Positions 2,993 through 53,085 of a stretch of 64,000 bases of DNA are shown in pieces. Source of the stretch: Kineococcus xinjiangensis (GTDB lineage: Bacteria; Actinomycetota; Actinomycetes; Actinomycetales; Kineococcaceae); NCBI RefSeq assembly GCF_002934625.1, contig NZ_PTJD01000001.1:445041-509040 (forward strand), read 5' to 3'. The notes below the pieces were generated by a model. The model ran no database searches. It saw only the letters and a program-made list of their open reading frames with translations, and was not told where the DNA came from. Position numbers and translations under genes: made by a program. Within the stretch, counting starts at the first letter, position 1; the number at the start of each line of letters is the position of its first letter.

Positions 2993-3910
2993 GTGGCCCA
3001 TCGCCGGTCGTTCCTGCTCATGTGCGGCACCGTCGCCGCCACCGCGCTCGCGGTCACCAGCTGCGGTTCCGACTCGCTCAGCGGCGCCCCCAGCTCCCCC
3101 GGCTCCACGGGGAGCCCCACCTCCTCGGCCGCGGCCCCCAGCGCCGACACGTCCCTGCAGGACTCCCTCCCGCAGGCCCTGAAGGACTCCGGCGTGCTGC
3201 GCGTCGGCACCAACGCCGAGTACCCGCCCAACGAGTACCTGGAGGGCGGCGAGGTCGCCGGCCTGGGCATCGACGTCATGAACGCCGTCGCCGCCAAGCT
3301 CGGCCTGGAGACGGAGTACACCAACGCGCCGTTCGACAGCCTGATCATCGGTGTGGCCGCCAACCGCTACGACGCGGCCGTCTCCTCCTTCACGATCAAC
3401 GAGGAGCGCAAGAAGGAGGTCAACATGGTCAGCTACTTCGAGGCGGGCAGCCAGTGGGCCACCCTGGCGGACAACCCCTCCGGCCTCGACCCGGCCTCCC
3501 CCTGCGGCAAGCGCGTGGCCGTGCAGACCGGCACCGTGCAGGCCGACGAGGACCTGCCCGCCCGCAACAAGGAGTGCGTCGACGCCGGCAAGCCGGCGAT
3601 CGAGGTCCTGACGTTCTCCAGCCAGCAGGACGCGACCGCGGCCCTGGTCGCCAACCGCGTCGACGCCACGGTGGCGGACTCCCCGATCATCGCCTACGCC
3701 GTGAAGCAGACCAACGGCCAGCTCGAGGCCGTCGGCGACGTCTACGACTCGGCGCCGTACGGCATCGTCATCCCGAAGGACCAGCCCGAGCTCGCGGAGG
3801 CGGTGGCGGAGGCGCTGAAGGCCCTGGAGGAGGACGGCACCTACGCCCAGGTCCTGCAGAAGTGGGGCAACGAGGACGGGGCCATCGACGACTTCGCCGT
3901 CAACCCGTGA
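2993..3910 (+). CDS. polar amino acid ABC transporter substrate-binding lipoprotein
   Basis: The N-terminus has a lipoprotein signal with lipobox LAVTSC followed by a Ser/Pro-rich linker. The remainder is a family-3 solute-binding fold (LRVGTNAEYPPNEY...GIVIPKD). AGGAGG lies upstream of the start. It is followed in-operon by a permease and an ATPase. Confidence 0.85.
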   Translation: MAHRRSFLLMCGTVAATALAVTSCGSDSLSGAPSSPGSTGSPTSSAAAPSADTSLQDSLPQALKDSGVLRVGTNAEYPPNEYLEGGEVAGLGIDVMNAVAAKLGLETEYTNAPFDSLIIGVAANRYDAAVSSFTINEERKKEVNMVSYFEAGSQWATLADNPSGLDPASPCGKRVAVQTGTVQADEDLPARNKECVDAGKPAIEVLTFSSQQDATAALVANRVDATVADSPIIAYAVKQTNGQLEAVGDVYDSAPYGIVIPKDQPELAEAVAEALKALEEDGTYAQVLQKWGNEDGAIDDFAVNP

Positions 3911-14801: not shown

Positions 14802-17800
14802 CTACCGGCGAGGCTGCACCGGCTGCCGCAGCAGGTGCAGCGGTGCCGGTTCGACACCGAGGTCCGTCAGCGCCCGCCAGTGGGCGAGGGCGAGCGCCTC
14901 GTCGACCAGGCCGTGGACCGGGGGGAGGCCAGGGCGGACCACGTGCACCAGTGCCTCCAGCTGGCACGACGGGACGGTGCCGGGGATGCGGTGGCCGGTC
15001 AGGTGCCGGGCGTACGGGCGGAGCACGGGGTCGTCGGCGGGTGTCTGCGTCGACGGGCCCGCCGTGAGCAGGCCGCCGCCGACCACGACCACGTCACCGC
15101 GCTCGGCCATCCGACGGGTGGCGGTGCGGGGGTCGAAGCAGTGCGGGAAGGAGTCGTCGACGACGATCGCGCCCGCGCGCAGCGAGTCGACGTCCAGGAC
15201 GCGGCGGTGCCCGCTGACGGCTGCGATGACCAGGTCCGCCTCGTGCACCGCGGCCGGCGCCCGTCCGTCCGGCCCGCACACCGCGACCTCGGCGCGGTGT
15301 CCGCGCGCTCTCGACTCCTCGGCCAGCCGGCCGAGGTGTGCGGCGCGGCCGGGAACGTCGCACAGCAGCAGACGCGCGGGCGCACCGGGTCCGAGGGTCA
15401 GCAGGAGCCGCAGCGACGACCAGCCGATGGAGCCGAGACCGACCACCGCCAGCGTGCACCCGTCGAGCCGGGTGCCGGTCGCGGCGAGGGCGAGGCGTGT
15501 GGTCGCCACCACCGACGCCGCGGTCACGGCGTGCCCGGTGGTCACGCGGGGAGCGTCCGGCGGCAGGGCCCGCACGACCTCGAAGCCGTAGCCGGTGTGC
15601 GCCGGGACCATCCCGGCCAGGGAGACCGCGGCCGCTCCGAGCCGGGCGGCGGTCTCGACGGCCCGCGCGACGTGCCGGGCCAGCGGAGCGCCGGCGGCCG
15701 GGCCCAGTTCGTCGGCGAAGACCGGGAGGCAGAGGAAGCCGGAGCGCCCGAGCGGTGTCGTCAGCTCCTCCAGCAGGCGGGGTCGGCCGTCGGGGAACAG
15801 CGCCGACCTGATCGACTCGCGCAGCCCGTCGGAGACCGGGAGGCCGGCCCGCGCCGCGAGCTCCTCCGGTGCCGGCAGGTACCCGACCAGCGCCGCGTCC
15901 AGCGACCGCGTCGCCGGGGTGACCGGCGCGGACGGCTGCGCGATGACCGGGCGGGCTGCCGAGGTGGCGCTGCCTCCCCGGGCGGCGTCGGTCAGCTCCC
16001 GCCGCACCTGCGCCGCCAAGTTCTCGAGGTCCGCGGGAGGCAGCACCCCGGCGGAGCAGCGCAGGGTCACCTGCAGGCCCGCTGCGCCCGGTCGCGCGGT
16101 GAGCAGCAGGTCCGTGCCGACCCGTGGCGGCTCGAGGTCGGTGCCCTCGTCCCAGGCCAGTGACAGCCGCCCGCCGCCGATCGGCCCGAGTGCCTCGAAG
16201 TCGAGGTAGCTGAACAGGAACTGGCCGCCGAACGACGACACGGACCCCGCGGAGGTGCCACGCCGGACGCGCTGCCGGATCGTCGCCCCGTCCCCCCGGG
16301 CCCGGTCGACGGCTGCCGCGACCTCCCGCACCTGCGCGGGGAAGGACGCTGCCGTGCCGTGCAGCCGCACCGGGACCACCGTCGCGAACGGCCCGACCAC
16401 CCGGTGCACGTCGGGTAGGGCGTGGTCACGTCCGGCGACCGCCACCCCGAGCAGCAGGTCGGCCTGGCCGGTCAGCCGCGCCAGGGCCCGGTGGTAGGCG
16501 GCGAGCACCGGCGCGAAGGGCGTGGCACCGGCCGCGGCCGCGCAGTCCCGCAGCGCGACGGTGAGCTCGTGGTCGAGGGTGAACGCCGTCCTGCCCGGTG
16601 CCGCCGAGGCCGCCTCGGGCCGGCGGAGCACGGGCGGGACGTAGCCGGGGCCCGCCTCGGCCCGGGCCTCGGCGGCCTCCCCGCCCTCCTGCCGCAGGAG
16701 CTCGACGTGGTCCCGGAACGTGCTGCGCAGCGGCGGCAGGCTCCGCGTCCTCCCGTCGGCGACCTCGTCGTAGAGCGACAGCAGGTCCTGCACCAGGACG
16801 ACCGCGCTGTAGCCGTCGCCGAGCAGGTGGTGAGCATGGACGACGAGGGCGTGCCGCCCGGGGCCGGTCCGCAGGACCTGCAGCCGCGCCAGCGGCCAGG
16901 AGGAGGCGTCGAGGCGGTGGGCCCGTTCCTCGGCCAGCCGCTGCGCCAGCTCCCCCGGATCCACGGAGCGGAAGCGGACGGGGATGCGCGCAGGCTGGTC
17001 CACCTCCTCCTGCACCGGCGGGCGCCGGTCGGCAGCGATCGCGGTCCGCAGCATGGGGTGCCGCTGCACGAGGCGGTCGACGGCGGTCTGGAAGTGCCCC
17101 GCATCCAGCTCGCCGGTCAGGCTGAAGCAGGCCAGCCAGCTCGTGCGGGCCCCCGGCGAGAGCGCCTCCGCCAGGAGGAACCCGCGCTGCGACGCGCTCA
17201 GCGGGAACGGCCCCGTCGTGCTCCGGCGGGGGCGATGCGGGGCAGGAGCCGCCTCGGCTGCGTCGACGGCGGCGGCCAGGCCGGCCAGCGTGCGGTGCCG
17301 GTGGAGCGCGCCGGGTGCGGGCAGGGCCGGGCGGTGCGGCTCCAGCTGGGCGAAGACCTCCAGCACGCCGATCGAGTCGCCGCCGAGGGCGAAGAAGTCG
17401 TCCTCGCGCGACACCTCCGCGACGCCGAGCAGCCGCTGCCACACCGAGGCGACGAGCTGCTCGGTCGGGGTGCGCGGTGGTGTCCGGTGCGGGCTCTGCG
17501 GGTGGGCCGGCGCCGGGGTGCCGGGCAGGCGGGCACGGTCCAGCTTCCCGGTCGCGGTGAGCGGCAGCTCGCCGACGACGGCCAGCCGGGCGGGGACCAG
17601 GTAGTCGGGCAGCCGCTCCGCCAGGTGGGCGCGGAGCTGCTCGGCCGTCGGGTCCGGACCGTCGCCCCGCAGCAGGACGTAGCCGACGAGGCGCGTCGTC
17701 CGCCCGTCGGGGGCCGGCTGGGCGACTACGGCGGCCCTCTCCACGGCCGGGTGCTCGCGCAGCACCGCCTCGGCCTCGCCGGGCTCGACCCGGTGGCCGC

Positions 17801-20800
17801 GGACCTTCACCTGCTCGTCGGTCCGGCCGAGGAACTCCAGGGCTCCGTCGTCCCGGCGGGCGACCCGGTCGCCGGTGCGGTACCAGCGGAGCCCGTCGCG
17901 GACGGGGAAGGCCCGCTCGGTCTGCTCGGGGTCGTCGAGGTACCCGGGGGTCAGGCCGGGGCCCGCCACCCACAGCTCCCCCGGCTCCCCGGCGGCGCAC
18001 CCCGCGCCGTTGGGGCCGACGACGTCCACCACCGCCCCCGCCACCGGGAAGCCGATCGGGATGCGGTTCATCGCGTCGTCAGGCCGGCGGTCGACGACGT
18101 GGCAGGTGGCGTTGACGGTCGCCTCGGTCGGCCCGTACAGGTTCACGATGCGCTGCGCCGGCCCGAAGAGGTCGAACCAGCGGCGGACCGGCACGGGCGA
18201 CAGGGCCTCCCCGCCGACGTGCACCCACCGCAGCGCCGACAGGTCGGGGGTGCCGCCGCCGGAGGCGACCTGCCGCTCGGCGGTGCGCAGGAGCTGCTCC
18301 CACAGCGTCGGCACCGAGCTCCAGACGGTGACCCGGCCCTGCTCGACCAGGTCGAGCAGCACCCGCGGGTCCCGTACCGCCTCGCGCGAGGCGGTGACGA
18401 CGGTGGCCCCGACCAGCAGCGGCGCGAGCAGCTGCCGGACCGAGGCGTCGAAGCAGATCGACGCGGTGGCCAGCATCCGGTCGCCCGCCCGGTAGCCGAA
18501 GGCGCCGACCGCCCAGCCCAGGTAGGTGGACACGGCGCGGTGGGTGATCGGGACGCCCTTCGGCCGGCCGGTCGTGCCGGAGGTGAAGGTCACGTAGGCG
18601 ATGTCGTCCGCGGCCGGCCGGGCGGGCGGCGCGTCGGGTGCGTCACCCACCGCTCCGCTGTCCACCTCGAGGACACGCAGGGGCGCGAGGAGCGAGGCGG
18701 CGCAGCGCGTCTCCGAGTCGCACACCACGGTGGTGGCGTGCGCCCGGTCCACGAGGTCGCGCAGCCGGGCCGGGGGGTGGGTGGGGTCCAGGGGGACCCA
18801 GGCCGCCCCGGAGTAGAGGATGCCGAGGAGTCCGATCACCGTCGCCGGACCCGGCGGCGTCAACAGGGCGACGCGGTCGCCCGCCCCGGTGCCGTCGACG
18901 CGCAGGCGGGCGGAGAGCCGGCGGGCCGCGCGGTCCAGCGCTCCGTAGCTCAGGGAGGTGCCGGCGTGCTCGACCGCGACCGCCTCCGGTGCGCGTCGGC
19001 ACTGCCGCGCGATGCGCAGGGCGAGCGAGTCCTCCGGCGCCCCCGGTCCCGGTGCTGCGGGTTCCTGGTCCGGCCGGGTGGCCCCCACCAGCTCGGCCAG
19101 CAGGTCGTCGCTGAGGCGCTCCAGCGTGGCCGGGGTGAAGAGACGAGCCGGGTGGTTCCAGGAGAAGCGGAGGGCACCGTCGAACTCCCAGCAGAGCAGG
19201 CTCAGCCCCGTCGCCGCCGAGGCCGTCCGCGCGGCGGTCTCCACGATCCGCACCGGGCAGTCGGTCGGCAGCTCGGCCGGGAAGCGGGCGAAGCTGAAGC
19301 CGGCCACAGCGGTCCCCGGCGCGGCGGGCAGCAGGCGGGCCAGGTCCAGCGAGCTCACGCTCCCGTGCTCCTCGGCGTCGCGCCACGCCGCCCGCACGAC
19401 GGGCGCCAGTGCGGCGGTGCCCGGCACGTCGGTCCCGACCGAGAGGGGCAGGGTGTCGGCGAAGGGGCCGACCACTCCCCCGATGCCCGCGAGCCGGGTA
19501 CCCCGACCGGCCCGTGCCACGTTGACGGTGACGCGCTGCCGGCCGGTCCGGCCTGCCAGCGTGCGCGCAAAGGCTGCGAGCACCAGGTGGAACAGGGAGA
19601 CGTCCAGCGCGGCCGCCCGGGTCCGCAGGGCGGCGGTGAGCGCGGCGTCGATGCCGAACTGCCGCGCGGTCAGCGGCGGGGCCGGTGCCTCGTCGGGATC
19701 CCCGTCGCAGGGCGGTTCCGCGACGGGCTCCGGCGTCCGCAGCCGTTCACCCCAGTGGTCGAGGTCGGCGACGAAGGCACCCGACCTCCGTTCCGTCGCG
19801 ACGAGGTCGGCGTGGTCGCGGAACGTCGACGGCAGGGCCGGCAGTTCGACGGGACGGTGCTGCGACAGGGCGGTGTAGACCCGCCACAGCTCGGCGCAGA
19901 GCAGGTTGAGGCTGGCTCCGTCTGCGGCGGCGTGGTGGAGGAGGAGCAGCAGCGAGGCGCGGTCGGCGTCCTCCCGGAGCAGGACCGCGCGCAGCGGGGG
20001 TCCGGTCGCGAGGTCGAGGACGCGGTTGCACAGCGCGTCCTCGGCGTCGTGGAGCGAGCCGGTCAGCGACCGGACCTCGAACCACTCCGGCCAGTCCGCG
20101 CCCCCTGGCGGTTCGACCTCCTGGCGCGGACGGCCGTCGACGGTGCGGATCCGCAGCCGCAGCATCGGGTGGCGGCGCTGCAGCAGGCTCAGGGAACGGG
20201 CGAGCAGCGCCGGGTCGGGGCCGCCGGTGAGGGTCTGCCGGAGGTAGGCGTAGGCAGGCACGTCGGGGTGCAGCAGGCCGCTGGTGTGGAAGGCCAGTTG
20301 CACCGGCGTCAGGGGGAACGGCCCCGTCTCCCGCGGCGCGTCCGGCGCCGGGGACGGCCCGGGGGCGACGGTCTGGCTTCCCGCCAGGTGGGCCGACAGT
20401 TGCGCGATCGACGGGTGCTCGAACAGCAGCGTGGTGGGCAGCTCCCGTCCGAGCTCGCGCTCGAGCCTGCGGACGAGGTCGACCGCGGCGAGGGAATCCA
20501 GCCCCATGGTCAGCAGCGACGCCTCCTCGTCGAGGTCCTCCGGGTGACGGCCCAGCTCAGCGGCGATCAAGCCGGCCACCACGTCGCGCGGTGCGCGCGC
20601 GGTCCGGTCCGCGGATGCGGGCGCGAGCGGCGGTCCCTCGGCCGGCGCCGGTGCTGGAACCGGCGGGAGGCGACGCCGGGGGGCGGGCGCGAGCGGGGGG
20701 CCGACCGGCTCGGGGCCCCTCACGAGCAGCTGCGCGGCGTCGACCGACGGCGCGTCCAGCACCGCCCCGGCCGCGGCCTGCGGGTCGACCTGCGGCACGT

Positions 20801-23800
20801 CCGCGACGGCGGCCAGGGCGCGGAAGGCCGCCGAGTCGGCCATGCCGGTGCCGGTCCAGGCGGCGAGGTTGAGCACCTGCATCGGTCGTCCGGCGTGCGC
20901 CTCGGCTGCCGCGAACGCGTCGAGGAACGAGTTCGCGGCGGCGTAGGCGCCGAGCCCACCGGCGTGACCCGGGAGGACGGAGGCGATCGAGGAGAGGGCG
21001 ACGAAGGCTCCCGGCCGGTTGCCGGCGAGGTCCAGCGCGCGGGCGAGCAGCAGGGTGCCCTGCACCTTCGGGGCGCAGACCGCCGCCACGGCCGGGACCG
21101 ACGTCGAGGCGAGCGTGCCCGGCTCCAGCAGCCCGGCGGCGTGGAGGACCCCGTCCAGCCTGGGCAGGGCGTCCACCAGGCCGGCCACGTCCACCGGCTG
21201 CGAGAGGTCCGCGCGGTGGTACCGGACCCGCGCACCCACCGCGGCGAGCTCCGCGACCAGGGCTCCCGGCGGGCGGGCGGTGCGCCCGACCAGGTGGAGG
21301 TCGGGGACGCCGCGGTCGGCGAGCGCCCGGGCCAGCGCAGCGCCGACACCGCCCGCACCGCCGGTGATCAGGTAGCACCCGTCCGCCGGCAGCGGGGGGC
21401 GGTCGGCCACGACCCCGGCGGCCAACGGCACCCTGGACAGCCGGCGCCCGCCGCGCCAGGCCACCGACTCGGCCGGGCCGGGCGCCGGCGGCGCGTCCAG
21501 CTCACGCACCAGCGCGTCGAGCCGGGCGGCGGTGTCGTCGAGGCTCGACAGGTCGACGAGCCGGAGCGGCTGCCGCCGGACTTCCTCGGGGAGCGCCAGC
21601 GCCAGACCGGCCAGGACCGCCTGACCGGGGCGGGCGCACTCGGTCGCCGCACCGGTCACGGCGACGTCCTCGGTGACGAGGAGCAGCGGGACGGGCCGCT
21701 CGGCCAGGAACCTCGCCAGCGGCAGGACGGTGCCCGCGGCGTCACGGGTCGAGGCGTCCAGGGCGTCGACGTCGTCGAGTTCCGCGCTCGGGCCGGCGAG
21801 CACGACCAGCACCGACACGTCCGGCAGCCCGGCCAGGTCCGGCAGTGCGCACGTGTGCACCGCGATGCCCCGCCTCGTGAGCCGTCGCGACAGAGCCGGG
21901 ACGAGGTCGGGGTGTGCGCCGACGAGGCCGACCGACGCCAGCACGGCACCGGCCGGCAGGGGGGTCTCGCGCCAGTCGAAACGGCGCAGCAGCGCCGACG
22001 GCGGGCGGTCCACCGAACCGTCCGTCTCGCCCCTGCCCACCGTGCCCGGCAGCCAGTGGGGCACCCGCTGGAACGGGTAGGTCGGCACCGGCACGCGCGG
22101 CCGAGGCGGATCCTCGGGTGGCGGGTGGATCGGTGCGCCGCGCTCCCACAGCCGGCCGACTGTGCCGAGGAAGGCCGCCGCGTCGTCGTCGCCGTCGGAG
22201 GCGGAGCCGAGGGCGGACAGGACCGCGACGTCCGAGGACGGCTGCAGGGCGCGCACCGCGGCGGCGACGAGGCCGCACAGCGCGGCGCCCGGCCCGACGG
22301 TGACGAGCGTGTCGTACCCCTCGGACAGCAACCGCTCGAGGACGGGGTGGAACAGCACCGGGCTGCGTGCGTGGTCGAGGAGGTACGCGGCGTCCAGTCG
22401 CGGGTTCCACTGCACGCTCACCGTGCTGAGCAGCGGCGTGCGCCACGCCCCCGGCGCGAGCCGGGCCGCGGCCGACCGCAGCCCGTCCAGCGCCGGATCC
22501 ACGCCCGGGGAGTGGAAGGCCCGCGAGACCGCCAGCCGCCGCCCCGGCAGGCCCCGCCGGGACAGCGCGGCCAGCACCGCGTCCACCGCGCTCCCGGGGC
22601 CCGAGACCACCACCTGGGACGGCCCGTTGACGGCGGCCACCACGGCCTCGTCGCCGGCCGCCGCCAGCACCTCCCGGACCTCTTCGGTGGAGGCGTCCAC
22701 CGCGGCCATCGCACCTGCGGCGCAGCGCTCCTGCATCAGCCGCCCGCGCTCGGCGGCGAAGCGCACCGCCTCGCGCGGGTCCAGCGCGCCGGCCACGGCG
22801 GCCGCGGCCAGCTCGCCGACGCTGTGCCCGGCCACCGCGTCGGGGCGCACCCCCCACGCCCGCAGCTGCGCGGCGAGCGCGATCCCGTGCGCCACCAGCA
22901 GCGGCTGGGCGACGTCCGTTCTCGCGAGCTCCCCCGGCTCGACGTCGTCGAGCGACCAGGCGAGCAGGCTGCGACCGCGGACCTCCCCCGCGGCCCCGGA
23001 CAGCTCCTCCACCACCTGCCGGTAGACCGGCTGCGACCGCAGCGCCCGGCCGAGCCCCGGCACCTGGGTGCCTTGGCCGGAGAACAGCAGTGCGGTCCTC
23101 GGGCGGCGCCGCGCGACGGCACCGGTCGTAGCGGCGCCCTCCAGCCGGTCGGCGAGGTCACCATCGACGGTCAGCGCCAGGCGGTGCGGGCGGTGGTCGC
23201 GGGCCGTGCTCGCACTGCGGACGAGGTCCGCTTCGTGCAGGTGGGGGTGCGCCCGGACGTGGGCGGCGAGTTCACGGGCTGCCGCCCGCAGCGCCGCTCC
23301 GGTCGCCGCGGAGAGGGTCAGCAGGTGCGGCCCGGGCGGCGGGGGCGACGACGGCCCGGGCCGGGGCGCCTCCTCCAGGATGACGTGCGCGTTCGTGCCG
23401 CCGAACCCGAACCCGTTGACGCCGGCCCGCAGCGGCAGTCCACCGGTCCACTCCCGGGGTTCGCGGACCACCTCGAGGCCCGCGGCGGCGAGGTCGAACG
23501 CGGCGGACGGTTCCTCGTGGTGCAGGGTCGGCGGCAGCGCGCGGTGGCTCAGGCTGAGGACCACCTTGACCAGGCTGGGCATCCCCGCGGAGTTGAGCAG
23601 GTGCCCGACGTTGGTCTTGACCGACCCCAGCCACCGCCGTCCGACGGCCGGGGCGGGGAACGTGCGCATCAGCGACCGCGCCTCGATCGGGTCCCCGATC
23701 GCGGTGCCCGTCCCGTGCGCCTCCACGTAGCTCACGGTCGCCGGGTCGATGCCGGCGTCGCGGTACGCCCGGGCGATCACGGCCTCCTGCAGTTGCGGGT

Positions 23801-26615
23801 TGGGCGCCATCAGGCTCAGCGAGCGCCCGTCGTTGTTCACGGTGCTGCCGCGAACCACGGCCAGCACCGGGTCCCCGGCCGCCCGCGCCACCGACAGCGG
23901 TTCGAGGACGAGGGCAGCCGCTCCCTCGCCGGGGACGAACCCGTCCGCGGCGGAGCTGAAGGCGCGGCAGCGGCCCGTCGGGGACAGCGCCTGCGCCGCC
24001 TCCAGCAGCCGGTGGCCGGTGGGGGTCAGGTTCAGACTGACCCCGCCCACGACGGCGGCGTCGCACTCGCCCGCCTCGAGGCTGCGCCGGGCCAGGTGCA
24101 GCGCGACCAGCGCGGAGGAGCAGGCGGTGTCGACGGCCAGCACCGGGCCGGAGAGGTCGAGGTGGTGCGCCACCCGCGCCGCGATGAGGTTGCGCAGGTT
24201 GCCCACCAGGGCCGAGGGGGGCACCGGCGCGCCGCTGTCCAGGGCCCGCTGCAGCAGGGTCGGGTAGCCGCTCTCGCCGACGGCGACGAAGACCCCGATG
24301 CGCCGGCCGCGTCGGCGCTCCCCCGCGTAGCCGGCGCGCTCCAGGGCCTCGTGGGCCACCTCGAGGAAGATGCGGGCGTGGGGGTCCGTGACGCCGGCCT
24401 CCGCGGCGTCGAGCCCGAAGAACCCCGCGTCGAAACCGGCGACATCGTCGAGGAACGCGCCCCACCGGGCCGTGGCCCCAGGGTTTGGCCGCCACCGGGC
24501 GGACGGCACCTCGGTGACGCTGTCGCGTCCCGCGCACAGGTTGCGCCAGAACGCCTCCGGGGTGTCGGCGTCGGGGAGGCGACAGGCCATCCCGACGACC
24601 GCTGCGGGATCCGCCGGCGGCGGCGCCTCGACCTCGCGGGGCGCGGGCTCCGCTCTCCGAGGCGCCGCCTCGGGAACACCCGCCAGTTCCTCGGCCAGCG
24701 CCGCGACGGTGGCGCAGTTCCGCAGCAGGGACTGCGGCAGCGGCCCGCCGAACTCGGTCTCCAGTTCGGCGAGCACGTGCAGCGCGGCCAGGGACGAACC
24801 ACCGACGGCCAGGAACCGGTCGTCGCGGGAGATCGACGAGGCCGGCACGCCGAGCACCTCCGCCCAGATCCGGGTGATGCGCTCCTCGATGCCGGAACGG
24901 GTCGACGGCGGCGCGGAGGCGGTTCCCCCCGCGCTCATCCGGGCGGCGACCTCCGCCTCCAGCGCGGCGAACCGCCCAGCGGTCAGCCGCTCCCGCAGCA
25001 CCGAGCGTTGGACCTTGCCGCTCGTGGTGCGGGGGAAGTCCTCCGGGGGGATCGGCAGCACGCAGACGTCACCGTGGCCCAGGGCCTCGCGGACGCGCGC
25101 CCGCACGGCGGCCAGCACCGGGACCAGGCCGTCGTCCAGCGGCTGGCGCGACGTCACGAACACGGCGACCCGCTCGGTGCCGCCTGCGGGATCGGTGCGG
25201 CCGACGACGGCGACCCGCCCGGGCGGTGCGCCGGGAGTGGCGAGCGCCACCTGCTCGAGGTCGCAGGCGTGGAACTTCTGGCCGGCGACGAACACCACGT
25301 CCTTGGCGCGGCCGGTCACGCACAGCCGGCCGCGGCGGAGGAAGCCCAGGTCGCCGGTGCGCAGCCAGCCGTCGGCGAAGGTCCGGGCGGTCTCCTCCGG
25401 CTGCCCGGAGTAGCCGCCGGCGACGTTCGGCCCGCGGAACTCGACGTGCCCGACCCGCGAGTCGGCCAGCACCTCCCCCTCGTCCCCGACGACGCGCAAC
25501 TCACCGCCCGGCACCGCGTAGCCGACGTCGAGGAGCTCCACGGGCGGCGGGCCGCCGGGTACCGGTTCGACGTCGACCGCGCGGCCGTCCGACAGTTCCC
25601 GCCGGTCCAGGACGAGCGGGCGGGCGACCTCGCCCAGCGGCGGGAACGCCACCGCCAGCGTCGCCTCCGCCAGCCCGTAGAGCGGGGCCAGCGCGCTCGG
25701 CCGGAGCCCGGAGGGACGCATGTGCTGGGAGAACGCGCGCCACATCGGCACCGGGATCGGCTCGGCACCGACGCCGACCAAGCGCACAGAGCGCAGGTCC
25801 AGCGCGGCGACCTCCTCCGCCGTCACGCGCCTGACCGTCAGCGCCAGCGCGAAGCTCGCCATCGGCAGCAGCGTGGCGCCGTGCCGGGCGGCGGCCTCGT
25901 ACCAGAGCGCCGGTCGTGCCCCGAAGTCCGCCGGGTCGAGCTTGACCTGCTTCAGCTGCAGCGACAGCGGGGTGAGGTGGGCGCCGATCAGGCCCATGTC
26001 GTGGGAGTACGGCAGCCAGCTGACCATCACGTCCGACTCCGTCACCGCACCGGCCGCGCGGGCCTGCCGGAGGTTGGCGACGACGTTGGCGTGGCTGAGC
26101 ACGACCCCCTTCGGGGCGCCGGTGCTGCCGGAGGAGAACTGCAGGAACGCGACGTCCGCGGCATCCGGCCGGTGCACCCGGGACAGCGGGTCGGCCAGCC
26201 GCAGTTCGTCCAGCGCGAGCATCCGGGGTCCGGACGGCGCACCGGCCCCCGGCAGGTGCCCCGGCGGGCGGGTGACGTCGGCGCCGGCCAGCAGCGGCGG
26301 CCGGCCCAGCTGCGCCCACACCGCCGCGACCTTCGCCGGCACCGGGGCCAGCGGCACGGGCACCAGCCCCGCGGCGAGCGCACCCCAGAAGCCGGTCAGG
26401 AAGTCGGTGCCGGCGCCCGCCAGCACGATCACGGGCGAGCCGGGTTCCGCGCCGGCGGTGCGCAGTCCCCCGGCGACGCGCAGGGACTCCTGCAGCAGTT
26501 CGTCGTAGCGCAGCACACGCTCATCGCCGTCCGCCGCGGTCCGGACGACCACCTGCTCGGGCGCGACCTCGGCGGCGTTGAGGAGGACGTCGAGGAGGGT
26601 GCCGTCGCGGCTCAC
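14802..26615 (-). CDS. hybrid PKS/NRPS megasynthase: FAAL-ACP-KS-AT-KR-ACP-C-A-PCP-C-(NAD(P)-binding Rossmann domain)
   Basis: One ORF of about 3,937 aa. Catalytic landmarks, as minus-strand nt positions, are: FAAL SSGSTGAPKG about 26120; ACP1 GGSSLAALH about 24795; KS DTACSS about 24125; AT GHSVGE about 22825 with the malonyl-type RAFHS motif; KR YLITGGAGGVG about 21360; ACP2 MGLDSLA about 20495; C1 HHAAADG about 19940; A-domain SGTTGRPKG about 18575 and GRTDEQVKVRGHRVE about 17300; PCP LGGDSIG about 17380; C2 HHLLGDG about 16825; terminal GLGSIG Rossmann motif about 15435. I place the start at GTG 26615, which overlaps the PPTase stop (GTGA). The in-frame ORF upstream to 26801 would run into the PPTase. 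Confidence 0.9.
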   Translation of the reverse strand: MSRDGTLLDVLLNAAEVAPEQVVVRTAADGDERVLRYDELLQESLRVAGGLRTAGAEPGSPVIVLAGAGTDFLTGFWGALAAGLVPVPLAPVPAKVAAVWAQLGRPPLLAGADVTRPPGHLPGAGAPSGPRMLALDELRLADPLSRVHRPDAADVAFLQFSSGSTGAPKGVVLSHANVVANLRQARAAGAVTESDVMVSWLPYSHDMGLIGAHLTPLSLQLKQVKLDPADFGARPALWYEAAARHGATLLPMASFALALTVRRVTAEEVAALDLRSVRLVGVGAEPIPVPMWRAFSQHMRPSGLRPSALAPLYGLAEATLAVAFPPLGEVARPLVLDRRELSDGRAVDVEPVPGGPPPVELLDVGYAVPGGELRVVGDEGEVLADSRVGHVEFRGPNVAGGYSGQPEETARTFADGWLRTGDLGFLRRGRLCVTGRAKDVVFVAGQKFHACDLEQVALATPGAPPGRVAVVGRTDPAGGTERVAVFVTSRQPLDDGLVPVLAAVRARVREALGHGDVCVLPIPPEDFPRTTSGKVQRSVLRERLTAGRFAALEAEVAARMSAGGTASAPPSTRSGIEERITRIWAEVLGVPASSISRDDRFLAVGGSSLAALHVLAELETEFGGPLPQSLLRNCATVAALAEELAGVPEAAPRRAEPAPREVEAPPPADPAAVVGMACRLPDADTPEAFWRNLCAGRDSVTEVPSARWRPNPGATARWGAFLDDVAGFDAGFFGLDAAEAGVTDPHARIFLEVAHEALERAGYAGERRRGRRIGVFVAVGESGYPTLLQRALDSGAPVPPSALVGNLRNLIAARVAHHLDLSGPVLAVDTACSSALVALHLARRSLEAGECDAAVVGGVSLNLTPTGHRLLEAAQALSPTGRCRAFSSAADGFVPGEGAAALVLEPLSVARAAGDPVLAVVRGSTVNNDGRSLSLMAPNPQLQEAVIARAYRDAGIDPATVSYVEAHGTGTAIGDPIEARSLMRTFPAPAVGRRWLGSVKTNVGHLLNSAGMPSLVKVVLSLSHRALPPTLHHEEPSAAFDLAAAGLEVVREPREWTGGLPLRAGVNGFGFGGTNAHVILEEAPRPGPSSPPPPGPHLLTLSAATGAALRAAARELAAHVRAHPHLHEADLVRSASTARDHRPHRLALTVDGDLADRLEGAATTGAVARRRPRTALLFSGQGTQVPGLGRALRSQPVYRQVVEELSGAAGEVRGRSLLAWSLDDVEPGELARTDVAQPLLVAHGIALAAQLRAWGVRPDAVAGHSVGELAAAAVAGALDPREAVRFAAERGRLMQERCAAGAMAAVDASTEEVREVLAAAGDEAVVAAVNGPSQVVVSGPGSAVDAVLAALSRRGLPGRRLAVSRAFHSPGVDPALDGLRSAAARLAPGAWRTPLLSTVSVQWNPRLDAAYLLDHARSPVLFHPVLERLLSEGYDTLVTVGPGAALCGLVAAAVRALQPSSDVAVLSALGSASDGDDDAAAFLGTVGRLWERGAPIHPPPEDPPRPRVPVPTYPFQRVPHWLPGTVGRGETDGSVDRPPSALLRRFDWRETPLPAGAVLASVGLVGAHPDLVPALSRRLTRRGIAVHTCALPDLAGLPDVSVLVVLAGPSAELDDVDALDASTRDAAGTVLPLARFLAERPVPLLLVTEDVAVTGAATECARPGQAVLAGLALALPEEVRRQPLRLVDLSSLDDTAARLDALVRELDAPPAPGPAESVAWRGGRRLSRVPLAAGVVADRPPLPADGCYLITGGAGGVGAALARALADRGVPDLHLVGRTARPPGALVAELAAVGARVRYHRADLSQPVDVAGLVDALPRLDGVLHAAGLLEPGTLASTSVPAVAAVCAPKVQGTLLLARALDLAGNRPGAFVALSSIASVLPGHAGGLGAYAAANSFLDAFAAAEAHAGRPMQVLNLAAWTGTGMADSAAFRALAAVADVPQVDPQAAAGAVLDAPSVDAAQLLVRGPEPVGPPLAPAPRRRLPPVPAPAPAEGPPLAPASADRTARAPRDVVAGLIAAELGRHPEDLDEEASLLTMGLDSLAAVDLVRRLERELGRELPTTLLFEHPSIAQLSAHLAGSQTVAPGPSPAPDAPRETGPFPLTPVQLAFHTSGLLHPDVPAYAYLRQTLTGGPDPALLARSLSLLQRRHPMLRLRIRTVDGRPRQEVEPPGGADWPEWFEVRSLTGSLHDAEDALCNRVLDLATGPPLRAVLLREDADRASLLLLLHHAAADGASLNLLCAELWRVYTALSQHRPVELPALPSTFRDHADLVATERRSGAFVADLDHWGERLRTPEPVAEPPCDGDPDEAPAPPLTARQFGIDAALTAALRTRAAALDVSLFHLVLAAFARTLAGRTGRQRVTVNVARAGRGTRLAGIGGVVGPFADTLPLSVGTDVPGTAALAPVVRAAWRDAEEHGSVSSLDLARLLPAAPGTAVAGFSFARFPAELPTDCPVRIVETAARTASAATGLSLLCWEFDGALRFSWNHPARLFTPATLERLSDDLLAELVGATRPDQEPAAPGPGAPEDSLALRIARQCRRAPEAVAVEHAGTSLSYGALDRAARRLSARLRVDGTGAGDRVALLTPPGPATVIGLLGILYSGAAWVPLDPTHPPARLRDLVDRAHATTVVCDSETRCAASLLAPLRVLEVDSGAVGDAPDAPPARPAADDIAYVTFTSGTTGRPKGVPITHRAVSTYLGWAVGAFGYRAGDRMLATASICFDASVRQLLAPLLVGATVVTASREAVRDPRVLLDLVEQGRVTVWSSVPTLWEQLLRTAERQVASGGGTPDLSALRWVHVGGEALSPVPVRRWFDLFGPAQRIVNLYGPTEATVNATCHVVDRRPDDAMNRIPIGFPVAGAVVDVVGPNGAGCAAGEPGELWVAGPGLTPGYLDDPEQTERAFPVRDGLRWYRTGDRVARRDDGALEFLGRTDEQVKVRGHRVEPGEAEAVLREHPAVERAAVVAQPAPDGRTTRLVGYVLLRGDGPDPTAEQLRAHLAERLPDYLVPARLAVVGELPLTATGKLDRARLPGTPAPAHPQSPHRTPPRTPTEQLVASVWQRLLGVAEVSREDDFFALGGDSIGVLEVFAQLEPHRPALPAPGALHRHRTLAGLAAAVDAAEAAPAPHRPRRSTTGPFPLSASQRGFLLAEALSPGARTSWLACFSLTGELDAGHFQTAVDRLVQRHPMLRTAIAADRRPPVQEEVDQPARIPVRFRSVDPGELAQRLAEERAHRLDASSWPLARLQVLRTGPGRHALVVHAHHLLGDGYSAVVLVQDLLSLYDEVADGRTRSLPPLRSTFRDHVELLRQEGGEAAEARAEAGPGYVPPVLRRPEAASAAPGRTAFTLDHELTVALRDCAAAAGATPFAPVLAAYHRALARLTGQADLLLGVAVAGRDHALPDVHRVVGPFATVVPVRLHGTAASFPAQVREVAAAVDRARGDGATIRQRVRRGTSAGSVSSFGGQFLFSYLDFEALGPIGGGRLSLAWDEGTDLEPPRVGTDLLLTARPGAAGLQVTLRCSAGVLPPADLENLAAQVRRELTDAARGGSATSAARPVIAQPSAPVTPATRSLDAALVGYLPAPEELAARAGLPVSDGLRESIRSALFPDGRPRLLEELTTPLGRSGFLCLPVFADELGPAAGAPLARHVARAVETAARLGAAAVSLAGMVPAHTGYGFEVVRALPPDAPRVTTGHAVTAASVVATTRLALAATGTRLDGCTLAVVGLGSIGWSSLRLLLTLGPGAPARLLLCDVPGRAAHLGRLAEESRARGHRAEVAVCGPDGRAPAAVHEADLVIAAVSGHRRVLDVDSLRAGAIVVDDSFPHCFDPRTATRRMAERGDVVVVGGGLLTAGPSTQTPADDPVLRPYARHLTGHRIPGTVPSCQLEALVHVVRPGLPPVHGLVDEALALAHWRALTDLGVEPAPLHLLRQPVQPRR

Positions 26616-27250
26616 GGGTCCCGCTCCCAGCACACGGTGAGGTGCACCCCGTCCGCCGGGTTCGAGGACCGGAACCCCCAGCGGGCCCCCTCCGCCCCGC
26701 CCAGGCGGGGTTCCGTTGCGCTGCAGTCCAGCGCGACGGTCCGCGGATCGCGCCCGAGGCCGGTCCCGGTCGCCTTCAGGTACGCCTCCTTGGCGGTCCA
26801 CAGCCTCAGGAAGCGCTCCTGCCGCCCCGCCGCGTCGGGCGCGTCCTCGAACCAGTCCAGCTCACCGGCCGACAGGCAGCGACGGGCGAGCGCCGGAGTG
26901 GTCGCCCGGGGGCCCTCGACGTCGACCCCGACCCGCCCGCCGGTGTGCGTGGCCACGGTGACCCAGCCGCCGCCGTGGGACAGGCTGACGTCGAGCGGCG
27001 GGTCGGCGACCGGACGGCCGGTGGGGGTGCGCCGCACCGACGCGCCGAGATCGGCGGCGAGTCGTCGGAGGAGGTGCCAGCCGAGCGCCGAGTCCTGCCG
27101 GTCCTCCCACCGCTGCAGCCGCGCCAGCCGGTGCTGCTCGGCGGACGGCAGGCCGGCGAGCAGCGCCGACCACGCGGGTGGCGCGAGCCGGGGACCGCGC
27201 GGCACCACGACGAGGTGCGCCGGCGGGGCGGGGGCGGCGTCGCTCTGCAT
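26612..27250 (-). CDS. Sfp-type 4'-phosphopantetheinyl transferase
   Basis: Motifs VGVDVEG and WTAKEAYLKATG are present, and the protein is about 212 aa. Its stop overlaps the megasynthase start, so the two are translationally coupled. Confidence 0.8.
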   Translation of the reverse strand: MQSDAAPAPPAHLVVVPRGPRLAPPAWSALLAGLPSAEQHRLARLQRWEDRQDSALGWHLLRRLAADLGASVRRTPTGRPVADPPLDVSLSHGGGWVTVATHTGGRVGVDVEGPRATTPALARRCLSAGELDWFEDAPDAAGRQERFLRLWTAKEAYLKATGTGLGRDPRTVALDCSATEPRLGGAEGARWGFRSSNPADGVHLTVCWERDP

Positions 27251-27434
27251 CGGCACCGATCCTGCCACTGTGCCCGCTCGGGGGGTGCTGCCCCGCGGCT
27301 GCGGTCCGCCTCCCGGCCTCGGACCGTCCGCCGCAGCGCTCGGGGCCTGACGCGCCCACGGCGGGGACGTTGCGCCGCGACGCACCCGCGTGTCGCAGGC
27401 GCAACGTCCCCGCCGAGGGGTCAGGCGGAGGGCC

Positions 27435-28853
27435 TCAGCGCAGGAACCACTGCCGCGGGGCGGCGAGCTCCTCGACGGCGTCCGGTCCCCAGGTGCCCTC
27501 GGCGTAGGGCAGCACCTCGGGCCGGGCCTGCTGGAACGGCTCGATGGCCTGCCAGGCGTTGCGCAGTCCCTCGACGCCGGTGAAGAGGGCGCGGTCGCCG
27601 GTGAGCACGTCGTGGATGAGCTTCACGTAGGGCGGGGCGTCGGTGCCGGGGAGCGAGGGCAGGGGCAGCGCGGCGGTGCCGGTGGTCAGCTCCTCCCCCA
27701 CCCCGAGCGCCTTGACGATCAGGGCGACCTCGATGCGGCCGCCCTCCAGCAGGGAGAAGCTGAGGGCGCTGGGCCGCTCCGGCAGCTCCGTCAGGGGCCC
27801 CTCGGGCCTGCGCAGCAGCAGTGTGATGCGCTGCTCGTCGGCGGCCATCTTCTTGCCGCTGCGCAGCAGGAACGGAACCCCGCGCCAGCGCTCGGAGTCC
27901 ACCCACAGCCGCACCGCCGCGAGGGTGTCGGTGCTGGAGTCGTCGGCGACGCCGTCGATGTCGCGGTAGCCCTCGAACTGGCCGAGGACGACCTCGGCGG
28001 GGTCGACGGCGCGGAAGTCCGCCAGGGCCGCGTCGCGGGCGGCGCGTACGGCGTCGGCGGACAGGTCGGCCGGGGTCTCCATCGCCACGGTCGCGGCGAG
28101 CTGGAACAGGTGGGTGACGATCATGTCGAGGAACGCGCCGGTGGCGTCGTAGAAGTCCGCGCGCTGGGCGACGTCGAGGGTCTCGGCGATGTCGATCTGC
28201 ACCTGCTCGACGTGCTCGCGGTTCCACACCGCCCCGAGCAGGGTGTTCGCGAAGCGGGCCCCGACGAGGTTGCGCACGGCCTCGAAGGCGAGGAAGTGGT
28301 CGATGCGGAAGACCTGGGACTCGTCGAAGACGCGCTGCACCTCGGCGTCGAGCTCCTCGAAGGAGGCCAGGTCGGTGCCGTAGGGCTTCTCGTAGACGAT
28401 GCGGCAGCCCTCGGCGAGGCCGTGGGCCTCGATGGCCCTGGTGATGCCGAGGGCCGCCCCCGGCGGCACGGCGAGGTAGTGGACGAGCTGCGCGTCGGCA
28501 CCGACGGCGTCGCGGGCCTCTGCGACGCGCGCGGGCAGCGAGCCGGCGTCGTCGGCGGAGAAACCGCCACCGGCGTAGGAGAGGCGGGCGGAGAAGTCCT
28601 CCCAGGGGCCCTCGCCCGGCTGGGGGCCGAACTCCTCCAGCGCCTCGCGCACGTGGTCGCGGAACCAGGCGGTGTCCTCGTCGCCGCGGGAGGTGCCGAC
28701 CAGGCGCCACTGCTCGGGCAGCAGGCCCTGGCGGGCCAGCTCGAAGAAGGCCGGCAGGACGAGGCGGCGGGCGAGGTCCCCGGTCGCGCCATACATCACG
28801 AACACGGTCGGCTGGGCCGGGGGTCGGGTCTCGCGCACGGGCTGGCTCACCAC
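27435..28853 (-). CDS. zwf: glucose-6-phosphate 1-dehydrogenase
   Basis: The dinucleotide fingerprint FVMYGATGDLARR, the active-site motif RIDHFLAFE (compare RIDHYLGKE) and EKPYGTD are present. The length is 472 aa. Confidence 0.9.
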   Translation of the reverse strand: MVSQPVRETRPPAQPTVFVMYGATGDLARRLVLPAFFELARQGLLPEQWRLVGTSRGDEDTAWFRDHVREALEEFGPQPGEGPWEDFSARLSYAGGGFSADDAGSLPARVAEARDAVGADAQLVHYLAVPPGAALGITRAIEAHGLAEGCRIVYEKPYGTDLASFEELDAEVQRVFDESQVFRIDHFLAFEAVRNLVGARFANTLLGAVWNREHVEQVQIDIAETLDVAQRADFYDATGAFLDMIVTHLFQLAATVAMETPADLSADAVRAARDAALADFRAVDPAEVVLGQFEGYRDIDGVADDSSTDTLAAVRLWVDSERWRGVPFLLRSGKKMAADEQRITLLLRRPEGPLTELPERPSALSFSLLEGGRIEVALIVKALGVGEELTTGTAALPLPSLPGTDAPPYVKLIHDVLTGDRALFTGVEGLRNAWQAIEPFQQARPEVLPYAEGTWGPDAVEELAAPRQWFLR

Positions 28854-29160
28854 TCACCTCGTCGGGTCGGCTTCCGGAAGTCTTCCAGGAGTGTTGCAGG
28901 CGGGGCCGTCGCGTCGAACGCTAGGCCGTCCCGGTGCGCCGCGCGCGAGCAGCCCGACGCCGCCGGCCGCCGGGGCGCTAGGGTTCCCGGCATGACCGCC
29001 GCCCGCGCCGCCGCCACCGCCCGCGGTGCGCTGCGCGGTGCGTGGTGGTGGGCGACCCCGTCGGCCGCCTGAGCCCCACCGCCAGGGAGGCCGCCGCGAG
29101 GTGGCGCTGCCCGGCCCCCCTCGCCGACCGGCTCCGCACCCCGAGCCCGACCGAGGAGAA

Positions 29161-47368: not shown

Positions 47369-47404
47369 GCCCGGTGCACCCGCACCGGCCCACCCGCCCC
47401 GGCG

Positions 47405-52518: not shown

Positions 52519-53085
52519 TCAGCCCCCCGCGCCCGGCGGCACCGGCTCCGGGTGCTCCGGTGGCCGCAGGTACGCCGGCGGGACGGCGTCGGTGAGCCAG
52601 ACGCCGTTGGCCGAGCGGTGGAACACGTGCCCGTCCCGCGCCATCCGGCCCGCGAGGACGGTCAGGACGGCGGGGCGGCCCCGGCGGGCGCCCACCCGTG
52701 CGGCGGTGGCGGTGTCCGCGGAGAGGTGCACGTGGTGGCGCCCGCCACGGTGCAGGCCCTGCTCGAGGATCGCCGCGAGGTTGCGCACCGGGGTGCCGTG
52801 GTAGAGCAGCTCCGGCGGATCGACCGGCTGCAACCCGAGGTCGACCGCGACGCTGTGGCCCTGGTTGGCGCGGATGCGGTCCCCGTCCAGGGCGAAGCGC
52901 TGCTTGTCGCTGGCGGCCACCACCCGCTCGAGCTGGGCACGGCCCACCGGCCGCCCGGACCGGGCCAGGGCGTCCAGCAGGTCGGCCACGCCCACCCAGC
53001 CGTGGCGGTCGAGGTGGATCCCGACGCTCTCCGGCGCGTGCCGCAGGACCCGCGAGAGCAGCTTCGAGACGCGGACGTCGTCCAT
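52519..53085 (-). CDS. kptA: RNA 2'-phosphotransferase KptA/Tpt1
   Basis: Tpt1 motifs SKLLSRVLRHAPE (R-H), LRANQGHS and VHLS are present. Length is 188 aa. Confidence 0.85.
   Translation of the reverse strand: MDDVRVSKLLSRVLRHAPESVGIHLDRHGWVGVADLLDALARSGRPVGRAQLERVVAASDKQRFALDGDRIRANQGHSVAVDLGLQPVDPPELLYHGTPVRNLAAILEQGLHRGGRHHVHLSADTATAARVGARRGRPAVLTVLAGRMARDGHVFHRSANGVWLTDAVPPAYLRPPEHPEPVPPGAGG

Follow-up and report, generated by a model that had tools for sequence, protein, structure and literature searches.

A TAD-family domain directly follows a condensation domain at the C-terminus of an orphan PKS-NRPS megasynthase from Kineococcus xinjiangensis

We examined a 64,000-nucleotide stretch of the Kineococcus xinjiangensis genome (contig NZ_PTJD01000001.1, positions 445,041 to 509,040; hereafter the window) that carries, on its minus strand, an open reading frame (ORF) for a hybrid of a polyketide synthase (PKS) and a nonribosomal peptide synthetase (NRPS). 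Read from its longest-ORF start, this megasynthase comprises 3999 aa. Pfam recognises in it, in order, an AMP-binding domain, a PP-binding stretch, KS, AT and KR domains, a second PP-binding stretch, a condensation domain, a second AMP-binding domain, a third PP-binding stretch and a second condensation domain, and NCBIfam places the first AMP-binding domain among the fatty acyl-AMP ligases (FAAL; 2e-97). No Pfam family scores above threshold in the last 449 aa. An earlier note, made from sequence alone, had singled out this tail as an atypical chain-release domain that its author could not assign. We find that the last approximately 370 aa are a clear homologue of the TAD ('terminal amidation domain') family, whose members are relatives of cyanobacterial acyl-ACP reductase (AAR) built from a macrodomain-like N-lobe and a Rossmann lobe. 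Coordinates of this domain and of the other features discussed are collected in Table 1. Residue numbers are counted from GTG 26801, the longest-ORF start; if translation begins at GTG 26615, 62 should be subtracted from each.

The tail itself is present as the earlier note described it, the ORF exists, and all three strings quoted there lie within 14802-16150 (LAVVGLGSIGWSSLRLLL at 15399-15452, FLCLPVFADE at 15708-15737 and TTGHAVTAAS within 15513-15548). The limits of the interval need adjustment: its codons are in frame from 16151, and the megasynthase stop codon occupies 14802-14804. The domain had been put at roughly 430 aa. In an AlphaFold2 (AF2) model the domain proper spans about 369 aa and starts near residue 85 of the interval, the preceding 85 or so residues being the end of the second condensation domain (C2; interval residues 1-59) and a linker.

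A phmmer search of the tail against all PDB chains returned one strong family, consisting of the TAD of CarI (9e4x, 9e4s and sister entries; E = 1.5e-34, residues 132-440 of the 449 aa tail). The CarI/VatR/HcaD type of TAD (Moorena producens; carmabin pathway) is represented by PDB entries 9E4S, 9E4U, 9E4X, 9E50 and 9E56 (Rankin et al., 2024; bioRxiv 10.1101/2024.10.28.620694). With a profile built from 70 relatives, the CarI match rose to E = 2e-69 (238 bits, chain residues 30-412), and the same profile matched the N-terminal reductase region of PigE (4ppm, residues 68-279) at 2.4e-10 (43 bits) and AAR, over the Rossmann part only, at 8e-4 (22 bits). Family libraries gave only sub-threshold leads for the tail: the FolD NAD-binding family at 0.02 (Pfam/NCBIfam), PigE at 1.8e-10, SbnB at 5.7e-4 and AAR at 0.02.

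The fold search that the earlier note had proposed gave the same answer. When the AF2 model (pLDDT 88.4, pTM 0.81) was compared with the PDB by Foldseek, CarI TAD chains filled the first ten places (E 3e-33 to 1e-29, rmsd 2.2-3.5 Å, TM 0.69-0.72 by query and 0.77-0.84 by target), with a structure-based identity of about 26%. AAR structures 6JZQ, 6JZU, 6JZY and 6JZZ ranked next (E about 3e-15 to 1e-15, target TM ~0.7), and amino-acid and 2-hydroxyacid dehydrogenases trailed with TM <0.46. The likeness to shikimate and amino-acid dehydrogenases that the earlier note had sensed is thus real but distant, and is confined to the shared Rossmann lobe. Because phmmer, the profile, the AF2 model and Foldseek all agree, the tail can be assigned to the TAD/AAR fold.

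These results also bear on whether the tail could instead be a thioesterase or a divergent member of the SDR-type reductase (R) domains of NRPSs, the latter an outcome that the earlier note had itself allowed for. Like the Kineococcus domain, SDR-type R domains (PF07993, NAD_binding_4) are C-terminal, use a nicotinamide cofactor and provide an alternative to release by thioesterase, and a C-terminal dinucleotide-binding motif in an assembly line might suggest one. Their fold and motifs are unrelated, however, and they have no catalytic Cys. Pfam thioesterase and NAD_binding_4 families are absent from the entire megasynthase; in the tail there is no match to PF07993 at E<=1, nor to PF01370-type families or the type I thioesterase family PF00975, and neither TGxTGFLG nor GxSxG occurs. 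The structural neighbours are TAD and AAR, with no SDRs among the significant full-length matches and no alpha/beta hydrolases among the fold matches in the PDB. We therefore consider this explanation refuted for practical purposes, in agreement with the earlier judgement that the tail is neither a thioesterase nor an SDR-type R domain but a two-lobed, Rossmann-type dinucleotide-binding domain at the position of chain release.

To place the domain among its relatives, we draw on three samples. A word-indexed search found 69 relatives, mostly actinobacterial fragments, of which several are annotated 'condensation domain-containing'; the JGI label on relatives is 'predicted amino acid dehydrogenase'. 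When one genome per species was scanned, relatives of the terminal domain proved to be encoded in 361 species genomes, and all locus counts below refer to the 80 best of these loci, onto which the domains of the window were mapped and whose architecture was read where enough upstream DNA was present. All 80 belong to Actinomycetota. The closest relative, from an uncultured Actinomycetota metagenome-assembled genome (MAG), is 72% identical, and is followed by Nocardioidaceae MAGs (57-62%), by two Ornithinimicrobium loci and two Actinomycetales MAGs (50-54%), and by sequences mostly from Streptomyces at about 50% (47-55%). Finally, 1.84 billion representatives were searched exhaustively with HMMER, which gave 578 matches at E<=1e-30, and the 139 top representatives that are new proteins were grouped by architecture.

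Two architectures dominate this grouping. In 62 of the 139, the domain follows a condensation domain (the C-TAD group), always within the string (FAAL-ACP)-KS-(AT)-KR-ACP-C-A-PCP-C-TAD or a KS-first variant of about 2.9 thousand aa. Another 44 have a CarI-like C-A-PCP-TAD arrangement (the PCP-TAD group), and all of these score lower. Twelve are domains standing alone or fragments. That leaves 21, of which 19 have too little domain coverage to classify and two could not be placed. Every high-scoring representative with an upstream domain (62/62) has the C-TAD junction. Likewise, the FAAL-ACP-KS-AT-KR-ACP-C-A-PCP-C-TAD string is conserved across the 80 best loci wherever upstream DNA suffices, and at none of these does a carrier protein lie between the last condensation domain and the TAD. 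Some variation was seen further upstream. Seven loci, five of them from Micromonospora, have no match to the AT domain of the window (L018, L020, L024, L055, L064, L067 and L072), and KS-first variants of ~2.9 thousand aa (for example P0094 and P0112, corresponding to L084 and L085) lack both FAAL-ACP and AT; no FAAL or AT gene was found nearby in the two KS-first contexts inspected.

The Kineococcus domain shares with CarI-type TADs the homology across both lobes, the two-lobe fold, its place as the last domain of an NRPS and the complete set of cofactor and catalytic residues, a set common to the C-TAD and PCP-TAD groups. Residues T3755 and G3756 of the TTG motif, together with the H3757 that follows, are conserved in at least 85% of both groups; in CarI this motif positions the catalytic Cys (Rankin et al., 2024). 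The P-loop reads GxGS(I/V)G at 80/80 loci. The LxLCD string that ends in Asp3815 was matched at 78/80 loci, and the Asp is kept in both architecture groups. According to the text of the structural paper, its CarI counterpart binds both adenosine hydroxyls and excludes NADP(H) and CoA, and the isolated CarI TAD binds NAD with a Kd of 11.6 uM and NADH with a Kd of 3.5 uM and does not bind NADP(H) (Rankin et al., 2024). By alignment, Asp3815 is predicted to confer the same preference for NAD(H) rather than NADP(H) and CoA.

The DDSFP loop retains both Asp residues, the Ser and the Pro of CarI. The counterpart of CarI Asp2170, which sits beneath the nicotinamide ring and is suggested to favour NAD+ (Rankin et al., 2024), is D3883. 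At this loop PigE reads D-V-A-L-P in a profile alignment, and AAR has D-G-G-Y-P. Since AAR carries Gly and PigE carries Val at the place of the second Asp, this residue of the DDSxP loop is specific to TADs.

The predicted catalytic Cys, Cys3946, which would sit in the cleft next to the nicotinamide, has an equivalent at 80/80 loci and is conserved in both architecture groups. In CarI the corresponding Cys lies 4 Å from nicotinamide C4, has been cross-linked to the phosphopantetheine of the PCP and forms a disulfide with dephospho-CoA within the NAD tunnel (Rankin et al., 2024). The earlier note had pointed to a Cys/His-containing region around FLCLPVFADE and had not noticed Cys3946; the Cys of FLCLPVFADE varies among relatives and is not part of the active site.

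Around this common core, three positions set the two groups apart. Residue 3949 is Glu in 100% of the C-TAD representatives and Ser in 98% of the PCP-TAD representatives; position 3908 shows the reciprocal pattern, with Gly in the former and Glu in 91% of the latter; and F3885, which stands where CarI has Gly in the DDSxP loop, is Phe throughout the C-TAD subgroup and Ala or Gly among PCP-TADs.

The pattern of conservation also addresses the idea that the domain is a relic without catalytic function, or that it serves for docking or structure and has lost its conserved residues, as the earlier note had considered. No activity has ever been shown for any TAD, which would suit such a role. Nevertheless, all cofactor and catalytic residues are kept at ~50% identity across Streptomyces, Micromonospora, Nonomuraea, Streptosporangium, Ornithinimicrobium and Nocardioidaceae, and mean conservation is 0.57-0.63 in the domain against 0.17 in the linker that precedes it. 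We judge a relic to be very improbable.

Table 1. Positions of the features of the megasynthase and its neighbours in the window.
Feature	Position	Strand	Basis
Whole megasynthase, FAAL-ACP-KS-AT-KR-ACP-C-A-PCP-C-TAD	14802..26801	-	Pfam; NCBIfam; start-codon context
A domain, 10-residue code DARSHGLVNK	17517-19019	-	
PCP3, last carrier protein (GGDSI at 17370-17384)	17262..17489	-	Pfam PP-binding
Terminal condensation domain C2, residues 3195-3609 (HHLLGDG intact at 16812-16832)	15975..17219	-	Pfam PF00668
Linker C2-TAD, residues ~3610-3630, predicted disordered, poorly conserved	15912..15974	-	AF2 pLDDT <50 at interval residues 60-80; conservation
TAD-family (AAR-like) terminal domain, residues 3631-3999, N-lobe and Rossmann lobe	14805..15911	-	phmmer, profile, AF2, Foldseek
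TTG motif T3754-T3755-G3756, then H3757; CarI Thr2042-Thr2043-Gly2044	15534..15542	-	Alignment to CarI TAD
P-loop GLGSIG, 3788-3793; CarI 2076-GxGxxG-2081	15423..15440	-	Sequence and CarI alignment
Asp3815 (LLLCD), end of second Rossmann strand; CarI Asp2102 (ITLCDV)	15357..15359	-	Alignment
DDSFP loop D3882-D3883-S3884-F3885-P3886; CarI Asp2169-Asp2170-Ser-Gly-cisPro	15144..15158	-	Alignment
Cys3946 (VPSCQLEAL), predicted catalytic acyl-accepting Cys; CarI Cys2238 (IMGCAFSAL)	14964..14966	-	Alignment
Glu3949, three residues past Cys3946, subfamily marker	14955..14957	-	Group alignment
Sfp-type 4'-phosphopantetheinyl transferase gene, immediately upstream of megasynthase	26612..27385	-	Pfam ACPS PF01648 6e-17, AASDHPPT_N
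G6PD-like gene (G6PD_N and G6PD_C), 50 nt upstream of the transferase gene, same strand	27435-28853	-	
PabAB- or TrpEG-like fused chorismate-binding/class-I glutamine amidotransferase, divergent from the three genes above	29026-31152	+	

Among the structural and motif characteristics of TADs, the one that the Kineococcus domain does not share is its position. The CarI TAD follows its PCP after a 26-residue linker, whereas here a condensation domain and a linker of ~21 residues intervene and the last carrier protein, PCP3, lies ~450 residues upstream. Downstream of C2 there is neither an A domain nor a carrier protein. The best PDB matches of C2 in a phmmer search are the condensation domains of PvdL (5e-36) and TycC (8e-23), and C2 is 36% identical to the first condensation domain of the megasynthase (C1) over 281 aa. 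The HHxxxDG motif of C2 is present at every locus with coverage, H3325 and D3329 are at least 95% conserved among 132 sequences, and mean conservation across C2 (0.51-0.60) is on a par with that of the TAD and far above that of the linker. C2 is a genuine and, by its motifs, catalytically intact condensation domain. Assignment as an epimerisation domain was considered and rejected, as its motifs are of the C type (an LSASQRGF start and AGR...VGPFATVVP) and its best PDB matches are condensation domains.

A further feature of the C-TAD group is the uniformity of the A domain that precedes it. The specificity code DARSHGL(I/V)NK is nearly invariant (loci L001-L080, proteins P0070-P0208); across the group the code is restricted to DARS[H/Q/K]GLINK, or to GGRNLGLVNK in the KS-first variant. 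The last A domains of the PCP-TAD group, by contrast, carry many recognisable codes (Orn, Gln, Ser, Asn, Gly, Asp, Pro, Tyr and Cys), as expected of a generic release domain. Code positions were mapped by GrsA numbering, and the recognisable control codes in the PCP-TAD group support the mapping. The C-TAD form is therefore tied to one conserved orphan megasynthase type with a near-invariant A-domain code. We attempted to assign the substrate and failed, as DARSHGLVNK matches no specificity code known to us. Two details of the codes may be noted: GGRNLGLVNK lacks the usual Asp235, as might be the case if the substrate had no normal alpha-amino group or bound in an unusual way, and Arg239, kept in both codes, suggests an anionic side chain.

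No release function other than the TAD (thioesterase, R domain, aminotransferase or other release enzyme) was found in the megasynthase or in the rest of the window. We think it probable, though with considerable reserve, that the domain terminates the chain in a self-contained assembly line for a lipo-amino acid, that release proceeds by way of Cys3946, NAD(H) and C2, and that an amide is the most likely product. The FAAL would load a fatty acid and the single PKS module would extend it to a 3-hydroxyacyl chain, after which C1 and the A domain would attach one amino acid on PCP3, the sole possible chain donor to both C2 and the TAD. By analogy with CarI and with the ping-pong acyl-Cys chemistry of AAR, the phosphopantetheine arm of PCP3 would enter the NAD tunnel and the N-(3-hydroxyacyl)-aminoacyl chain would pass to Cys3946 as a thioester. 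Release would then be aided by the nicotinamide cofactor and by the intact C2 directly before the TAD. Under the hypothesis put forward for the family, ammonia or a nitrogen donor would attack the acyl-Cys to give a nitrogen-capped C-terminus, namely a primary amide; the main alternative outcome would be an aldehyde formed by reductive release.

Nitrogen capping is favoured because the domain is much nearer to TADs than to the reductases and because it keeps the Asp found only in TADs. The preference is modest, as no TAD has been turned over in vitro and the evidence for amides comes entirely from PCP-TAD enzymes. With regard to the unusual NAD(P)-dependent release step suggested by the earlier note, nicotinamide-dependent termination remains the best reading, with the change that Asp3815 predicts NAD(H) and not NADP(H) as the cofactor. 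The first observation is thus confirmed and its interpretation is supported in part.

Several points weigh against amide release by this route. The text of the structural paper reports that neither the CarI nor the VatR TAD brought about any release in vitro, whether NAD(H), metals, ammonia or one of the 20 amino acids was supplied, turnover not being obtained because authentic substrates were lacking, and that no TAD has demonstrated catalytic activity (Rankin et al., 2024). The amide assignment derives from three cyanobacterial products, all of PCP-TAD enzymes and none of a C-TAD enzyme, and in the published identity matrix the consensus of the Streptomyces cluster stands closer to AAR, at 25.5%, than the CarI cluster does, at 20.5% (Rankin et al., 2024). 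The relatives with proven biochemistry (AAR, the N-terminal domain of PigE and the C-terminal domain of TamH) are all thioester reductases that yield aldehydes. Published TAD schemes leave the role of C2 unexplained, and we found no literature on the product of this megasynthase family and no later TAD biochemistry.

Some of these points would be accommodated if the domain were a thioester reductase of the AAR/PigE/TamH type, in which the chain on Cys3946 would be reduced by NADH to an N-acyl amino aldehyde that may cyclise or be processed further, with no nitrogen added. AAR of Synechococcus elongatus shares the fold and carries a Cys (Cys294) at the equivalent position of the lobe interface, an equivalence established through CarI. 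PigE and TamH, from the prodigiosin and tambjamine pathways, contain AAR-like, Cys- and NAD(P)H-dependent domains that are fused to other domains and offload carrier-bound acyl chains, and the PigE N-terminal reductase region is matched in profile searches of both NCBIfam and the PDB, at the E-values given above. Reduction is, moreover, the only activity proven in the superfamily, the CarI TAD binds NADH slightly better than NAD+, and AAR resembles the Streptomyces-type consensus more closely than it does the CarI type.

The same comparisons reveal substantial differences. The score of the CarI TAD far exceeds those of PigE and AAR, and the TAD-specific Asp under the nicotinamide is kept where AAR has Gly and PigE has Val. 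The P-loop is GxGxxG and not the extended P-loop of the reductases, PigE having a GYPGSIC loop. Against the AAR model TIGR04058 the domain scores 14.1 bits (cut-off 449.7), and AAR is a stand-alone, NADPH-preferring enzyme that is partnered by an aldehyde-deformylating oxygenase and has no counterpart of the initial strand and helix in the TAD N-lobe, whereas the Kineococcus domain is fused and carries Asp3815 and Asp3883. Against the PigE/TamH fusion model NF053554 it scores 39.8 bits (cut-off 850). In those proteins a fused pyridoxal phosphate (PLP)-dependent transaminase consumes the aldehyde, but no transaminase is present in the Kineococcus protein or the window, and near its relatives neither a partner transaminase nor a gene for aldehyde processing is conserved. 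The CarI and VatR TADs released no substrate with NADH, and a reductase would leave the conserved C2 without a role. Reductive release to an aldehyde therefore strikes us as possible but on balance unlikely.

A different division of labour is suggested by C2. This domain might itself catalyse release by transferring the chain onto ammonia or a sacrificial amino acid, and the TAD might act in cis as an NAD+-dependent dehydrogenase serving C2. The TAD would either generate ammonia or oxidatively cleave the N-C-alpha bond of the added amino acid to leave a primary amide and a 2-oxoacid, in analogy to the glycine addition and subsequent cleavage of the myxothiazol pathway. C2 is complete and conserved, with HHxxxDG intact, and has no A-PCP acceptor downstream. 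The C-TAD junction is invariant in the 62 representatives and at all of the 80 loci with enough upstream DNA; E3949, G3908 and F3885 are subfamily-specific changes near the active site; C-TAD is bound to one A-domain code where PCP-TAD is promiscuous; and the Asp under the nicotinamide in CarI has been suggested to favour NAD+. The domain also bears a slight likeness to NAD+-dependent dehydrogenases of the amine-cleaving or amino-acid type, such as SbnB, and to amino-acid dehydrogenase folds, but these similarities are weak and lie mostly in the Rossmann lobe. Amino-acid oxidation has been shown by no TAD, the proposal is purely inferential, and on its own it offers no explanation for the invariance of the Cys, which in CarI reacts with phosphopantetheine. 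We regard this arrangement as improbable.

Returning to amide release through Cys3946, one may speculate that the most economical role for C2 is to supply or position the nucleophile, either ammonia or a sacrificial amino acid, which the TAD would make or trim. In its boldest form, this idea would make the C-TAD didomain a distinct two-enzyme termination machine in which C2 and TAD cooperate to release one conserved lipo-amino-acid metabolite across Actinomycetota, the KS-first variants included. We put this forward as a doubtful proposal, somewhat less probable than simple reductive release. The coupling of C to TAD, its link to one module and A-domain code, and the exchange at E3949 and G3908 are not mentioned in the text or supplement of Rankin et al. 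(2024), although the figures of that paper may contain them.

The genomic surroundings indicate that the megasynthase is an orphan. Among its neighbours, only the adjacent 4'-phosphopantetheinyl transferase (PPTase) gene is relevant to it; the TGA of this gene overlaps an in-frame GTG as GTGA (26612-26615), an arrangement that suggests translational coupling. GTG 26615 is probably the real start of the megasynthase, rather than GTG 26801, because the 62 upstream codons encode an Arg/Gly/Pro-rich stretch and overlap the PPTase gene; the sequence read from it begins MSRDGTLLDVLLNAAE, which is a better fit than a start at 26801 (region 26615-26801, minus strand). A 3642 aa ORF runs antisense to the megasynthase (16422-27350, plus strand). 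Its codon-position GC content (~0.97 at position 1 and ~0.88 at position 3) mirrors the pattern of the real gene, and so we consider it an artefact of the high GC content of the window (70-82%) and not a gene.

The G6PD-like gene possibly forms one operon with the PPTase and megasynthase genes, although it is not found beside homologous megasynthases. The divergent PabAB-like gene was considered as a source of ammonia for the TAD and as a conserved partner, and was rejected, as it is absent from all other contexts examined. None of the ten neighbours in the window occurs beside a homologue at any of the 80 loci, de novo clustering of downstream ORFs revealed nothing common to more than 18 of the 80, and five full-length contexts share no genes; in three of these, the short ORFs immediately upstream are unrelated to one another. 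The text of Rankin et al. (2024) likewise reports no co-occurring nitrogen-donor gene.

The rest of the window is housekeeping in character. One flank of the megasynthase carries genes for ECF sigma/anti-sigma factors, SRAP, EPSP synthase, RsgA, VKOR, IMPase and a CAAX protease; the other has, besides the G6PD-like and PabAB-like genes, flotillin, Pnkp/Hen1, GGDEF-EAL, a MoxR/VWA operon, an ABC transporter, GH43, UPF0182 and others. Pnkp (kinase-phosphatase-ligase) and Hen1 (methyltransferase) form an RNA-repair gene pair at 33138-36886 (minus strand), and a Tpt1/KptA RNA 2'-phosphotransferase gene lies further along at 52519-53085 (minus strand). The MoxR/VWA operon, at ~39800-47400 (plus strand), encodes a DUF5691 protein, a MoxR-type AAA_5 ATPase, a DUF5682 protein and a VWA CoxE-like protein. 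The GC peak of the window (0.82) falls at 40-42 kb, where the ORF 39867-40946 has no Pfam match.

The terminal domain is of a kind already known, since Rankin et al. (2024) recorded in the text on their sequence similarity network a Streptomyces-dominated cluster of TAD homologues ('Cluster 1', 460 sequences). The Kineococcus domain is a new and fairly divergent member: its identity to the Streptomyces sequences among the 80 loci is 47-55%, below the edge threshold of ~65% used for the cluster. If it proves to be simply an AAR-like reductase, the result would be a routine improvement in annotation. TADs are, however, among the few recurrent release domains of NRPS and PKS systems whose chemistry is still unsolved, and the actinobacterial form is found here in its simplest setting, with one polypeptide, an adjacent PPTase, and a free fatty acid, malonyl-CoA and one amino acid as inputs. 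Being one self-sufficient polypeptide with a PPTase of its own, the megasynthase could be the system that reveals what TADs do; the entire pathway would lend itself to reconstitution or heterologous expression, with its product read directly. Should C2 and the TAD prove to cooperate, they would represent a new termination logic that could help to build C-terminal amides or aldehydes into engineered lipopeptides, and the conserved orphan metabolite of a domain with relatives in 361 species genomes would be identified.

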